Part shown: piece after piece, positions 13,425-17,143 of the stretch
Layout of the letters: every line of letters begins with the position of its first letter
Numbering within the stretch: position 1 is the stretch's first letter
Assembly (NCBI GenBank): GCA_963665295.1
Contig: OY762209.1
Location: 2,944,001-3,008,000, forward strand
DNA from: Syntrophorhabdaceae bacterium
GTDB taxonomy: Bacteria; Desulfobacterota; Syntrophorhabdia; Syntrophorhabdales; Syntrophorhabdaceae
Direction of reading: 5' to 3'
Length of the DNA: 64,000 nucleotides
Notes under the pieces: generated by a model
What the model was told of the DNA's origin: nothing
Databases searched by the model: none
What the model saw: the letters and a program-made list of their open reading frames with translations, nothing else
Made by a program: the position numbers and the translations under genes

Positions 13425-13579
13425 GTTCCGGTTCATGCCCCGTGCGGGAGCGGCTTCTTTCTTCGTGTCTCTCGTGTTCCCGTTGACGTTTCAACCCACG
13501 CCCCCGCAGGGCAGCAAAAACTTACGCTCAATATTAGTAGATTATCAGGAGTTTCAACCCACGCCCCTTTGAGGGCGGC
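13425..13579 (-). CRISPR. degenerate type I-C CRISPR mini-array, 3 repeats / 2 spacers
   Basis: Repeats begin on + at 13425, 13488 and 13551 (exact 63-nt period). In minus sense: GCCGCCCTCAAAGGGGCGTGGGTTGAAAC, GCTGCCCTGCGGGGGCGTGGGTTGAAAC, GCCGCTCCCGCACGGGGCATGAACCGGAAC. Spacers are 35 and 33 nt; the array starts 77 nt after the cas7 stop. Confidence 0.85.
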
Positions 13580-13656
13580 ACCATCATTTATTGCTTACGG
13601 AAACCAGGCCCGAAGGCCGGTTCCGATCGGTTCCTCCGTCGGTCTTTCTCCGGCGC

Positions 13657-14544
13657 TCAGATCTTTTCCTCCATGGTCACTCCATTCGGCAGCCTGTCCG
13701 TATCGACTGCAATCACGTAGTCGGTGAAGGCGCGGGCAGGTTCGGAATCGTCCCTGCGACGACCCACACGAACAAGGTCAAACAGCTTATGGGCGGGAGC
13801 GTTGCCCAAAGCGGAATCATGCTTGAATACCATGAGCCTTCGGGCATTCATCTTTCCTCTTGAGGCGGAATGATCATGGTCGAACATATTTACCAGGGAG
13901 TCCCAGAATAACTGGAGGTCTTCCCCAGAGAAACCTGTCTGCTGAGCGAGATGAGCGGATACGTAGCCTTCGGCGCGATAGAGCGCGTAGGGAACGATGT
14001 GTTTCCTGCCCATGGTGCGGTTATCACCGCCCTGCTGCTCCGCTTCCTTCTCGGTAGCCACGGCCATCCTTGTAATGCTTACCTCCGTGGGAACAATGGC
14101 CTCGATGCTGCGGGCAAAACAGAGTTGCACGGGACCCCGGACCTGCCCACAGTTTATTTCGAGGGCCATGACCGCCCCAAAGGTGCGCACGTCGTAGAAA
14201 TTGGCGCACATCCAGGCCCGGGCCTTCTCCACTTCATCCGCCGTGCCTTTGCGTCCTTTTCCGCTCACCCTGTCTTCGACTCCCACGGCTTGATGGGCGC
14301 GCCTGTGGGTCTGGTTGAGAATGGCCTTTTCCCGTACATAGATTTCATAGGGAGACTGATTGCTCTTCGCGATTTCAACGAAGTTCCGGACCTTCCTCTT
14401 GAGGCAGACGTCGGTTACCAGGCCGAAACTTGTCTCCGGGTCGATGCGGGGCATGTTTCCCGCATCGGGGTCTCCGTTGGGGTTTCCGTTTTCCACATCA
14501 AAGAGATATACGAACTCGTACCTGTTCCTGATGATCTCGTCCAT
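13657..14544 (-). CDS. cas7c: type I-C CRISPR backbone protein Cas7c (Csd2)
   Basis: [57 protein letters not shown] and DHSASRG motifs; AAGGAGG RBS before ATG 14544. Confidence 0.97.
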   Translation of the reverse strand: MDEIIRNRYEFVYLFDVENGNPNGDPDAGNMPRIDPETSFGLVTDVCLKRKVRNFVEIAKSNQSPYEIYVREKAILNQTHRRAHQAVGVEDRVSGKGRKGTADEVEKARAWMCANFYDVRTFGAVMALEINCGQVRGPVQLCFARSIEAIVPTEVSITRMAVATEKEAEQQGGDNRTMGRKHIVPYALYRAEGYVSAHLAQQTGFSGEDLQLFWDSLVNMFDHDHSASRGKMNARRLMVFKHDSALGNAPAHKLFDLVRVGRRRDDSEPARAFTDYVIAVDTDRLPNGVTMEEKI

Positions 14545-14908
14545 ACTGCTGATCCTCCTTGAGGGCTTCCGATTTGACATAGAATGACTGTCGCTGATGG
14601 TAGTACCCTATGGCAAACATACCCTGGTCATCAAGGCTCAGGTGGGTAGGCAGCTTCTTTATCCCATATATGATTTCCTGGACCATTCTGTCGGTCCTGC
14701 CGCCATATTCGGCCTTCTGCAGATGGTGCTGGGCCAGTCTGAAGAGCTGCGGAAACACAATGCTCGGGGTCGTTGAAGCCGACCCGTAGTACCGATCCTT
14801 TATGGTGGAATTTATACCGGGGATGGCGTCTTTCTGTGCCTTCTCCAGCACGGCAAAAAGCCTGCCCAAGCGGTAGGCAATACTGGTTGACTCTGTATCC
14901 AATGACAT
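14498..14908 (-). CDS. cas11c: internally translated small subunit Cas11c (in frame within cas8c)
   Basis: GAGGAGGT RBS (14913-14920) 4 nt before in-frame ATG 14908, giving [25 protein letters not shown]. Confidence 0.8.
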   Translation of the reverse strand: MSLDTESTSIAYRLGRLFAVLEKAQKDAIPGINSTIKDRYYGSASTTPSIVFPQLFRLAQHHLQKAEYGGRTDRMVQEIIYGIKKLPTHLSLDDQGMFAIGYYHQRQSFYVKSEALKEDQQYGRDHQEQVRVRISL

Positions 14909-16255
14909 ACGGACCTCCTCTGTAATGTTATGGACGCGGTATTTTCTGTTAAGGAACGCCTTGATCATGGCGGCGCGCGCATAGTTTATGGTCCGGTCGG
15001 CGCGAATCCTGCTGAGAAGGACCGGAAGCAGGCTTTCGGGGTAGGGTAGGCCTGTAAGAATGGAGCGCATCACGGCCCCCGCGAGAACGGCGGGAATATT
15101 GTCCGTCTTCCCCATGGCCGCCGTCTCTCTCAGGAGTTGCCACATACCGGGGAATTCCGGGTCTTTTTCGCCCCGTACTATGGCGAGATCCCGAAAATGT
15201 TCTCCTATCCGGGTGCTGATCTCCGCTATCGTGCTTACATACCAGAACCGGACGGACAAGCGGGAAGAGTTGGGTGACAGTCCCAGGATATAGAAGTCAA
15301 GCTCCGGTTCGTCTATGCCGGGCGGCAACGCGCCGTCCCGCACCGCCTTAAGGAATATACGGACATCCGCCGCATCGGCCGACCCGCTTCCAGGGTCGAG
15401 GATAGCGCTCATAAACCCCTCGACAGGCGAGGCGCGCTCAGTCCAGAAGACCGTCGTCGCGTCGCCGATCCTTATCTTCTGACCGCTCTCAAAGCGAAGC
15501 AGGTGGTTGAGTGCGGTCGTATAGCCGAAAGCGACGCTCTCACACACGGGGGCGTTGAAATTCTGCGTCTTGTTGTAGGAACGGAAGGCTTCCAGATTAA
15601 ACGATATTATACCTGCTCCCGCCGACTGGGCCCCCTGGACGCCCTTGATAGGAGGATGGAGACGGGCTATAGGTCCGGTGACTCCCGTGACAAGGCAGGT
15701 AGCGACAACTTCCGAGCCCTCCTTGATACAATGTTTTGCCCAGGCTTCCCGTATGGCCGGGCGTTCGTGAATATATGTCGGCTCACCGTCGAGCTGGAAA
15801 ACAAGATTAGCGCCGGCTATCTCTTCCCAATGTTCCATCTGCGAAAAGTCCTCGGGATTCCATGAATCGAGAAATCGGAGGACCGCCGTCATGCCGGGGT
15901 CGCCCATGGATTCGCCCAGATTGTGATGGAGTTTCTTGAAAGCCTCGAAACATTTCAAAGACCTGACGCCATTTCCCTTGGCATCCCGGCCCAGCACATA
16001 GCCGCTGTTATCCCACATGAAATTCGGCGTAATATCGACGGCTCGCTTCCTCCCTATCACCGGGACGGTAAGCGCAATGGGAACAGGTTTCTTTCTGGCC
16101 TTGTCCCGAATATCCTTCACCTGAAGAAGGATGCCCTCTTCGTTGAGAACAAGAACGAAATGGACCTTCTCGCTGCCGAATCCGAGAAGGGGGATGTCGG
16201 TTTGGGGGTCATCTCTCAATCTTTCGTAATGGTGGTTAAGGGCTTGAAGTATCAC
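14498..16255 (-). CDS. cas8c: type I-C large subunit Cas8c (Csd1)
   Basis: MILQAL...[40 protein letters not shown] and GYYHQ motifs; GTGA overlap with the cas5 stop. Confidence 0.97.
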
Positions 16256-16902
16256 GCCTTTACCGCCTTTCCGCCCGGGGGTGGCACGTCTATCGCGCCG
16301 TCCCTCATGACGGCCCTAAAGAATTTGGCTTCCATCTGGTTATCAAAATCGATATCGTGGAGCATCCAGCCGAGGTCCTTTTTCCCTTTATGAACAGAGC
16401 AAGGTACGTCTTCGACCGGCGCGAAATGAGCGGCAAATTCCCGGCACCCCAAATAAGGGTAATGAAAACACTGGCCTTTGCCCGCCCGTCTGTCGAAGAC
16501 CTCTTTATGCTTTGCCGGGTTGTTGTCTTCGTTTCCTTTGAATTCAAAGTGGGCCTCGATGACATAGGACACGTTTCTCAGGACCAATGAAGCCCGCTGT
16601 TGGCGATCCTCCTCGATGAAGACCTGAACCGGGGAATACCCGTCGTTCATCGCCTTCCTTACCGATCCCATCGCCAATTTGCCTGCGAGTTCATGGCGTC
16701 TCACGTTATCGAAGCGGATGGGGTTAAGTACATGAATACGGTCAACCACCCACCTGATGGCAGGTTTCCAATAAACGGCCTCCAGTATCCCCCTTGCCGC
16801 GGACGGCGTCATCACATCATAGCTGACGCGTTCCACTTTCATCTCGGGACGTGTAAAACAGGCATAATCTCCCCAAACCTTCAGTTTCACGCCATAAGAC
16901 AT
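16252..16902 (-). CDS. cas5c: type I-C Cas5c (Cas5d) pre-crRNA endoribonuclease
   Basis: [47 protein letters not shown] and DLGWMLHD motifs. Confidence 0.97.
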
Positions 16903-17114
16903 CGCCGAACCTCTCCCGGAAACCTGATGATACTTCCCACATCACCAAAATTAGTCTGCCCCATGCGAGTAAAAAGCCAACCCACAGTCACGTAACCGGG
17001 AGGATGAGCCGCCGTATTGTAATTGTTGGCGCGTTAAGCTTTAGAGCAACATGGCGGGTCTCGAGCGGAGCTTCCACGCGGGTTCGTTTTTCACCGTTGG
17101 TGATTTGCACACAA

Positions 17115-17143
17115 ATTTTAAGGCATGGATGAAGAAAAATCAA
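17115..17143 (-). promoter_or_regulatory. sigma70-like promoter of the cas5-8-7 operon
   Basis: Minus strand TTGATT-17 nt-TAAAAT in an AT-rich intergenic region, about 210 nt upstream of cas5. Confidence 0.6.

Follow-up and report, generated by a model that had tools for sequence, protein, structure and literature searches.

The window analyzed here is a stretch of 64,000 nucleotides (nt) from a Syntrophorhabdaceae bacterium, corresponding to C1:2944001-3008000 in a single-contig 5.5-Mb genome (G000). On its minus strand, at window positions 13422-16902, lies an orphan type I-C CRISPR effector locus. Its genes are cas5c, cas8c (within which a cas11c start is located), and cas7c, and behind them comes a mini-array whose first spacer matches bamB, a gene on the same chromosome. 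The nuclease gene cas3 and the adaptation genes cas4, cas1, and cas2 are absent from the locus. The reading that we favor, with a probability of roughly 0.4, is that this nuclease-free Cascade carries a fixed guide and has as its present function the binding of bamB without cutting it. The anatomy of the locus, the match with its specificity, the intactness of the proteins, and the local lack of cas3 and cas1 are direct observations; within this reading we infer that the locus would be expressed, that its CRISPR RNA (crRNA) would be matured, and that the loaded complex would bind bamB and may affect it.

A preliminary description of the window had proposed an exapted, fixed-guide DNA-binding or regulating system. 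This proposal is strengthened by the match of spacer 1 to host bamB, flanked by a protospacer adjacent motif (PAM), and by proteins that look selected; it is weakened by the occurrence in one genome only, by the sense orientation of a target inside a coding region, and by a pattern that an autoimmunity scar would also leave. The points that speak for the favored reading are an ordered and complete effector module, a PAM-flanked and allele-specific match of spacer 1, mismatches confined to the distal end, repeats that fit the needs of a crRNA, undecayed proteins, and the clean loss of the flanking modules.

Spacer 1 and its match to the host bamB gene

Spacer 1 (S1; window 13520-13550, minus strand) is 31 nt long, and its positions 1 to 21 match C1:5394340-5394320 exactly (BLAST E 2e-5). 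Positions 23 to 25 and 30 to 31 match as well, giving 26 of 31 identities over the protospacer (G000:C1:5394340-5394310, 2.4 Mb from the orphan locus) and leaving five mismatches within positions 22 to 29. The bases preceding the protospacer are TTC, the PAM expected for type I-C, for which 5'-TTY is reported (bioRxiv 10.1101/2023.08.05.552134); two perfect self-matches of a large array elsewhere in this genome bear the same motif. A genome-wide scan of TTC sites gave a run of 10 as the next best for S1, and among 30 shuffles of S1 the PAM-flanked run was at most 11 and the total at most 22.

The matched stretch covers codons 55 to 65 of bamB-1 (653 aa), about 165 nt into the coding region, and the 3' neighbors of this gene are a ferredoxin-like gene and a CCG-domain gene. 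Over residues 1 to 650, the target protein aligns with the solved BamB of benzoyl-CoA reductase (4z3w; E = 0, 1171 bits); bamB-1 encodes the catalytic subunit of the tungsten class II benzoyl-CoA reductase. Since its orthologs are 76 to 87% identical across the order, bamB-1 is a core gene.

S1 fits the sequence of its own genome better than that of any relative. At 19 orthologous sites in relatives only 10 to 19 of the 21 positions match, and the CTA-CTA codons at the S1 site are unique to the source genome, in which CTA accounts for 2% of leucine codons. The paralog bamB-2 of the same genome (69% identical) has TGA in the place of the PAM and matches S1 at 17 of 21 positions. Judged from these comparisons, the match is specific to the bamB-1 allele of this genome. 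Furthermore, all five mismatches fall in the last 10 of the 31 positions (hypergeometric p ~0.0015 under an even spread). The last ten bases of S1 resemble no bamB homolog, and because bamB is conserved at that stretch across its orthologs, the five mismatches arose on the spacer side.

Upstream of bamB-1 (L018 8570-8960, equivalent to G000:C1:5394569-5394959), a unit of about 50 nt is present in two to three copies. Its elements are TTGACA, a box resembling TAAGAT/TATAGT, and a GTGAATA-TATTCAC palindrome, and the copies look like repeated promoter-plus-operator modules ahead of the benzoyl-CoA reductase operon. A search of Rfam with the region upstream of bamB gave a chance-level match only. 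An autoregulatory target in the upstream region of the orphan locus itself was considered and rejected, as no site for S1 or for the second spacer (S2) is present in window 16881-17420.

Anatomy, array, and surroundings of the orphan locus

The cas family calls are based on Pfam E-values and on the curated cut-offs of NCBIfam (TIGR models). All three genes lie on the minus strand: cas5c, the crRNA-processing subunit of type I-C (window 16252-16902, 216 aa; PF09704, E 1e-47; TIGR01876, 195 bits against a cut-off of 85); cas8c/csd1, the large subunit (14498-16255, 585 aa; PF09709, E 1e-184; TIGR01863, 561 bits against 219); and cas7c/csd2 (13657-14580, 307 aa; PF05107, E 6e-109; TIGR02589, 413 bits against 182). 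The three open reading frames (ORFs) are intact, with NCBIfam scores two to three times the curated cut-offs. The GTG start of cas8c overlaps the stop of cas5 (GTGA), and the 5' end of cas7 overlaps the 3' end of cas8c, an overlap also seen in relatives; an alternative ATG of cas7c at 14544 is preceded by an AAGGAGG Shine-Dalgarno sequence. Inside cas8c, the cas11c frame (14498-14908, minus strand) runs from Met450 to the stop and comprises 136 aa. A GGAGG lies 6 nt 5' of Met450, a methionine occupies that column in 82% of 61 homologs, and the solved Cas11 chains (124 aa) align with residues 451 to 566 of the orphan Cas8c, which itself matches the solved I-C Cas8 chains 8dej_I (E 8e-139) and 8gaf_G (E 1e-106). 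The internal cas11c start is therefore well founded, and its translation is predicted. These observations bear out the earlier account of an intact, translationally coupled cas5c-cas8c-cas7c set with an internal cas11c start. The orphan belongs to the type I-C effector family without being a complete type I-C system.

The sigma-70-like promoter that had been placed about 210 nt before cas5 does correspond to a match, TTGATT-17 nt-TAAAAT (window 17115-17143, minus strand), about 213 nt upstream of the gene. This match reaches only 9 of 12 consensus positions, and the promoter scan found five such 9/12 sites in the orphan region against 2.9 +/- 1.8 in shuffles, so that the region is not enriched and the site at 17143-17115 is weak and not significant on its own.

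Conservation of the proteins was measured at columns at least 95% conserved among the 61 homologs. There, the orphan deviates at 2 of 75 columns in Cas5, 4 of 93 in Cas8c (one of them being the GTG start), and 1 of 104 in Cas7. In relative-rate tests of the orphan against its full-locus sister with four outgroups, Cas5 and Cas7 showed no rate excess. The orphan proteins show no decay and look selected, and the alternative of a decaying locus, which had been raised along with the original proposal, finds no support in the proteins.

The mini-array is degenerate, has the same reading direction as the cas genes, and consists of three repeats and two spacers. Its presence after cas7 had been described correctly, with a gap of 77 nt; the gap is in fact 74 nt long (window 13583-13656, minus strand), contains a GC hairpin without a T-run, and shows no recognizable leader. 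The scan called no terminator-like site in this gap on the minus strand. Because no such site precedes the array, it is probably read through from the cas operon and co-transcribed with it. The promoter scan also calls a site within the array itself (window 13530-13557, minus strand), which combines the TTGAAA of the end of the first repeat with an AATATT within S1. An internal start in the array is conceivable; the AT-rich AATATT box also belongs to the bamB protospacer.

The first repeat (R1; window 13551-13582, minus strand) has a diverged 5' half that still forms a hairpin, and the second (R2; 13488-13519, minus strand) has a diverged 5' half with a weaker hairpin left. The two differ at most positions of these halves, while their 3' 17 nt, which encode the 5' handle of the crRNA, are identical. 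S2 (13454-13487, minus strand; ~32-34 nt) separates R2 from the terminal repeat (R3; 13422-13453, minus strand), which is degenerate, retains a short hairpin, and has lost the 3' part that encodes the handle; R3 was compared with the consensus repeat of the family by eye. In the arrays of 38 related loci the repeats are uniform within each array and all end in GTGGATTGAAAC, whereas the three repeats of the orphan differ from one another. R1 and R2 share a single A-to-G change of the handle (GGGTTGAAAC), absent from all 38 related arrays and from the large array of the same genome. Type I-C repeats are recognized by a length of 32 nt, a GC hairpin, and a 3' end of ...ATTGAAAC; R1 and R2 have the hairpin and end in ...GTTGAAAC, with the one change of the handle, and R3 is degenerate. 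A search of Rfam with window 12000-18500 gave no match at an E of 1 or better.

What was kept and what drifted in R1, R2, and R3 is the pattern expected if selection acted on the needs of the crRNA, which takes its 5' handle from the upstream repeat and its 3' hairpin from the downstream one. The 3' end of R3 enters no crRNA, and that part is lost. Active arrays may, however, have similar-looking repeats at their trailer end, so the repeat pattern gives no date for the loss of cas3. The contigs of four DNA runs are identical to the window and contain no variant of the array; they are uninformative on expression.

Regarding the surroundings, the earlier claim that nuclease and adaptation genes are missing locally is sustained. 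Searched against window 11001-19000 with tblastx and blastn, the flanking regions of five full loci matched repeats only and revealed nothing left of cas3, cas4, cas1, or cas2. Both flanking modules (cas3 on one side and cas4-cas1-cas2 on the other) are gone without trace, and the 3.3-kb Cascade is intact. An upstream HD protein was examined as a possible split Cas3'' and discarded, as it carries a generic HDIG domain and does not match the Cas3 HD family TIGR01596. The flanks are ordinary genes, as had been stated: the ten ORFs scanned encode signaling and metabolic domains, namely a Cache-domain protein, a CheW-receiver, and a PAS-GGDEF protein on one side, and HDIG, TPR, glycogen phosphorylase, and DeoC on the other. 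None of these ten ORFs is a Tn7-like gene or a gene of a CRISPR-associated transposon, transposon ends lying outside this search. The GC content of the locus (52-59%, against 54.7% for the genome) gives no island signal.

In the genome G001, of the same genus, the HDIG-TPR-DeoC block is retained and has no adjacent cas genes. A full I-C locus at the same site in a relative, which would have pointed to a recent deletion, was thus not seen. The genes neighboring the block in G001 differ, and the exact junctions are not definable. The glycogen phosphorylase-like gene between TPR and DeoC (window 18672-20801) is missing from that position in G001, and the neighborhood of the orphan has gained or lost several genes besides the Cascade. 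Directly 3' of the array, a 245-aa ORF (window 12354-13091, minus strand) has a single Cache sensor domain (residues 139-243) and ends with no output domain, which may mark a truncated sensor gene.

Relatives of the orphan Cas8c were collected as 30 genome loci (one genome per species) and 70 metagenome loci, at identities of at most 73%. A cas3 gene lies upstream in 27 of the 30 genome loci and 42 of the 70 metagenome loci, and adaptation genes lie downstream in 27 and 45, respectively. The missing modules are explained by contig ends, except in L044 and L112, with no adaptation match in 3.7 and 5.1 kb, and in L071, with no cas3 match in 5.3 kb. None of the 100 related loci lacks both modules, and a Cas3-less I-C clade was accordingly not found. 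The orphan arrangement occurs in none of them, which leaves its synteny, and the pairing of guide and target, without a counterpart in which conservation could be demonstrated. Within the order, this Cas8c family is present in 3 of 96 genomes, including the source genome. Both of the others carry the full cas3-cas5-cas8-cas7-cas4-cas1-cas2 set; they are G003, of the same genus, and G009, which the tree places as the sister with support 0.99. The orphan arrangement is a one-genome derivative, neither a clade nor a visibly fresh deletion of a locus held by relatives at the same site. As a separate observation, some of the related I-C loci share a conserved gene of ~190-270 aa, situated between cas7 and cas4 and 51-56% identical from locus to locus, as in L033 (G003:C45) 11892-12710; the full I-C locus of the source genome also has a copy (56%).

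Other CRISPR-Cas loci and competing explanations

The orphan had been called self-contained. This holds locally, where a complete Cascade sits with its own guide array, and it does not hold for the genome, which contains a divergent complete type I-C locus and a complete type I-E locus. A whole-genome search for cas3, cas1, and I-C arrays located the former (L019) at C1:1161672-1176922, 1.8 Mb from the orphan, with cas3 (811 aa), cas5, cas8c (773 aa), cas7, cas4, cas1, cas2, and 94 repeats. The type I-E locus (L020; C1:2435290-2444230) has cas3, cse1, cse2, cas6e, cas7, cas5e, and cas1; in its gene order, cas6e precedes cas7. The genome has two cas3 genes, at C1:1.17 Mb and 2.44 Mb, and the nearest cas1 genes are at the same two places.

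The orphan and the other I-C Cascade share 27%, 23%, and 30% identity, which rules out the orphan as a recent duplicate. The cas4, cas1, and cas2 of L019 are 70, 74, and 78% identical to those of the closest relatives of the orphan, and its repeat is typical of the orphan's family, while its Cas3 is only 35% identical to the Cas3 of that family and its Cas8c scores 134 bits on TIGR01863, below the cut-off of 219. This composition suggests a chimeric locus produced by module shuffling between two I-C lineages. Among the 93 spacers of its array, spacers 84 and 85 have perfect 34/34 matches with TTC PAMs on their own chromosome (C1:2513777-2514192; L157 9778-10193), and the single gene hit by both (455 aa; phrog_7858) belongs to an integrated element with genes for an integrase, a ParB-like protein, a primase, and a topoisomerase. 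For spacer 91, 33 of 34 positions agree with C1:3737606-3737639, where the flank is TGC. Since two perfect TTC-flanked self-matches are tolerated, type I-C interference in this cell would be blocked or inactive, which suggests an anti-CRISPR or an inactive system.

Under the favored reading, the orphan would derive from an ordinary full I-C locus and would have been kept after the loss of cas3 and cas4-cas1-cas2 as a lineage-specific, trimmed effector module. The array would be transcribed together with the cas genes, Cas5c would cleave the precursor crRNA at the retained hairpins, and Cascade loaded with crRNA-1 would recognize the TTC PAM in bamB-1, ~165 nt into the coding region. A PAM-proximal R-loop of ~21-25 bp could then form, and the five mismatches at positions 22 to 29 would block its completion. 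Binding without degradation would be expected for two reasons. A cognate Cas3 is missing, and the Cas3 of type I-C needs a full R-loop for its recruitment, being reported to bind the full R-loop state only, via specific Cas8 contacts (bioRxiv 10.1101/2023.08.05.552134). In type I-E, deletion of cas3 is described as turning Cascade into a repressor (PMC4288209). The likely effect would be a protein roadblock or a partial repression of bamB-1, similar to a fixed-guide natural CRISPR interference (CRISPRi) or to a regulator of the CreA/CreR type. A bolder version, in which the domesticated Cascade is a hard-wired natural CRISPRi on bamB-1 that tunes the dearomatizing step of anaerobic benzoyl-CoA degradation and spares the paralog bamB-2, seems to us rather unlikely.

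Several observations weigh against binding of bamB as the present function. The target lies within coding sequence, and as S1 reads in the sense direction, the partner of its crRNA is the template strand. By the convention common for dCas9, which need not be the one followed in work on Cascade, the sense orientation is the weak one. Silencing of transcribed regions by type I-E Cascade is reported as only moderate and limited to one strand (PMC4288209). S2 has no target above chance: its best PAM-flanked run in the genome is 9, with a total of 21, equal to shuffles; matches in phages (E of 4 or worse) and plasmids (E of 3 or worse) stay at chance level; and an exact search of viral contigs with its first 24 nt returned 0 matches. 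The two tolerated self-matches of the large array suggest, in addition, that self-matching guides need not be functional here. Cas8c, moreover, shows a modest rate excess over its sister (71-77 unique changes compared with 49-55, p 0.013-0.11), concentrated in the C-terminal half. At columns at least 90% conserved among 40 close homologs, it deviates at 22 of 247 (median 4, range 2-32), a figure inflated for any sequence without a close sibling in the sample, and most of the changes are conservative. The loop of Cas8c aligned to the Cas3-recruiting loop of Neisseria has several orphan-specific changes, with 1 of 13 conserved columns affected, which is not decisive. Finally, from a single instance, long-term selection on the arrangement cannot be shown.

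Some of these same observations lend themselves to a different history, in which a full I-C locus took up a bamB spacer, the survivors lost cas3 and later the adaptation genes and most of the array, the distal end of S1 was scrambled, and what remains is a neutral or almost neutral, still undecayed remnant of autoimmunity that has no selected function. We consider this the main rival, somewhat less probable than the favored reading. The position of S1 as first spacer together with the absence of cas3 is the pattern that PMC3816762 summarizes as the usual outcome when autoimmunity ends in a loss of function, which counts against the favored reading, as do the confinement of the arrangement to one genome and the mild acceleration of Cas8c. 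The better fit of S1 to its own allele (21/21 against at most 19/21 in relatives) agrees with self-acquisition with correct PAM choice. A precedent for such rearrangement is found in the array of G003, where a junction deletion joins a spacer to a truncated repeat, and the odd S1/R2 junction of the orphan could likewise be a single event. A remnant of this kind is, however, difficult to reconcile with 3.3 kb of three intact genes that keep near-invariant residues, with Cas5 and Cas7 at the rate of the sister, while the unconstrained halves of the repeats mostly differ. The PAM and the first 21 nt are untouched, though mutation of either would be the simplest escape, and two separate clean deletions around a preserved core would be required. 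The conserved and drifted parts of R1, R2, and R3 also follow the requirements of a crRNA. A scar implies remaining components that are non-functional; here, the proteins and the PAM are intact, and the 17 handle-encoding nt of R1 and R2 are identical.

The preliminary description had also offered a Cas3 acting in trans. In this scheme, which we regard as improbable, the orphan would be an auxiliary immune effector that loads crRNAs of the 94-repeat array and uses the Cas3 of that locus, the mini-array being a leftover. An I-C locus with a Cas3 does exist 1.8 Mb away, and the intact state of the Cascade would be explained. The repeat of the large array has the family-invariant 3' end GTGGATTGAAAC and is similar to those found in relatives of the orphan; the neighboring cas4, cas1, and cas2 share 70-78% identity with the orphan's family, next to a Cascade with only 23-30% identity to the orphan. 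Against these stands the Cas3 itself, whose 35% identity to the cognate Cas3 of the family must be seen in the light of the specific contacts reported between Cas3 and Cas8 (bioRxiv 10.1101/2023.08.05.552134). With the two perfect TTC-flanked self-matches of the large array, active I-C interference would be self-destructive unless blocked. The A-to-G change of the handle, present in both orphan repeats and in neither the large array nor the 38 related arrays, is a further difficulty.

A real S1 match with an effect other than silencing of bamB, such as a barrier to replication or recombination there, or a complex that mainly serves a target of S2, is very unlikely. In favor of this reading, a sense-oriented site in coding sequence is suboptimal for stopping RNA polymerase (PMC4288209), and S2 with its handle-encoding repeat R2 is as well preserved as S1. 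Against it, the searches described above gave S2 no target above chance, and no other feature of the locus suggests such a role.

Returning to a Cascade that binds bamB-1 without cutting it, its interest lies in the old question of whether CRISPR effectors are ever recruited naturally to regulate ordinary host genes; self-targeting spacers are mostly explained as accidents in the literature that we consulted. If the bolder version of a hard-wired CRISPRi were true, no earlier Cas3-less type I effector on a chromosome would have had its metabolic target in the host identified. The locus offers a clean test case, with no adjoining nuclease or adaptation genes, a fixed guide, a named target (bamB-1) that has a canonical PAM, base pairing restricted to the PAM-proximal side, and the untargeted paralog bamB-2 as an internal control in the same cell. 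Should binding and repression be true, crRNA-like regulation would extend from guarding the CRISPR locus to metabolic control, and a compact natural I-C binder would be at hand. Should the locus be silent, it would represent an unusually detailed record of how a type I locus is dismantled after self-targeting.

Comparison with known systems

A literature search turned up no account of a Cas3-less I-C Cascade that stands alone and has a fixed guide directed at a catabolic gene of its host, which is no proof that none is in print. In comparison with canonical type I-C (Dvulg; Desulfovibrio vulgaris and Neisseria lactamica; PDB 8dej, 7kha, 8g9s-8gan), the orphan has the same order and overlaps of Cas5c, Cas8c with internal Cas11c, and Cas7c, and a TTC PAM at the target; its repeats R1 and R2, though not the degenerate R3, partly keep the type I-C form of a 32-nt hairpin repeat ending in TTGAAAC. 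In contrast, it has no adjacent cas3, cas4, cas1, cas2, or leader, only two spacers, mutually diverged repeats, and the handle change GGGTTGAAAC.

PMC3816762 summarizes self-targeting spacers that are accompanied by degraded cas loci (Stern et al. 2010), as well as the type I-E spacer of Pelobacter carbinolicus against hisS. The degraded loci, as presented there, share with the orphan a PAM-correct match to a chromosomal housekeeping or metabolic gene, the first position of the spacer, and the loss of a cas gene. Unlike in those loci, the Cascade genes of the orphan are intact, and the PAM and 21 seed-proximal nt are kept with a mismatched distal end. The system of P. carbinolicus differs in being complete, its hisS spacer being the last of 111 (PMC3816762).

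Engineered type I-E CRISPRi in Escherichia coli rests on the same principle, Cascade and crRNA without Cas3 giving programmable DNA binding and repression (PMC4288209). That system is artificial and strongest at promoters, whereas the natural target of the orphan is at +165 and in the sense orientation. Cas3-less type I Cascades also occur in nature, including an "incomplete type I-C" with a Cas8-Cas5 fusion, proposed to be a DNA binder (PMC10910872). These have in common with the orphan a Cascade kept without Cas3, and the latter is likewise I-C and a proposed binder. The orphan differs in having no flanking transposase genes, HNH insertion, or Cas8-Cas5 fusion, in its separate genes of normal length, and in its identified self-targeting guide. 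In Myxococcus xanthus, the Cascade-like DevT/R/S are reported to negatively autoregulate dev transcription (bioRxiv 10.1101/2023.07.26.550624), so that homologs of Cas8, Cas7, and Cas5 act there in host gene regulation instead of defense. Those homologs (Cas8a1, Cas7, and Cas5) belong to a larger CRISPR-cas operon and regulate their own operon, and the available part of that source describes no comparable guide-target pair.

The closest resemblance is to CreA/CreR-type elements, in which degenerate mini-CRISPRs guide Cascade to repress a toxin or cas promoter via partial complementarity (bioRxiv 10.1101/2023.03.10.532045; PMC10120712). Both have degenerate repeats around the guide, a valid PAM, and complementarity limited to the PAM-proximal part, which for those elements gives binding without Cas3 cleavage. 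As described in these sources, CreA/CreR elements reside inside complete CRISPR-cas loci and target their own cas or toxin promoter, whereas the orphan is an effector alone, without Cas3, with a long match (21-25 nt) to a catabolic coding region 2.4 Mb away. Its target is neither its own promoter nor a neighboring toxin gene, and it lacks the conservation across loci of that class; the orphan would nevertheless work most like a crRNA-like regulatory mini-array or natural CRISPRi.

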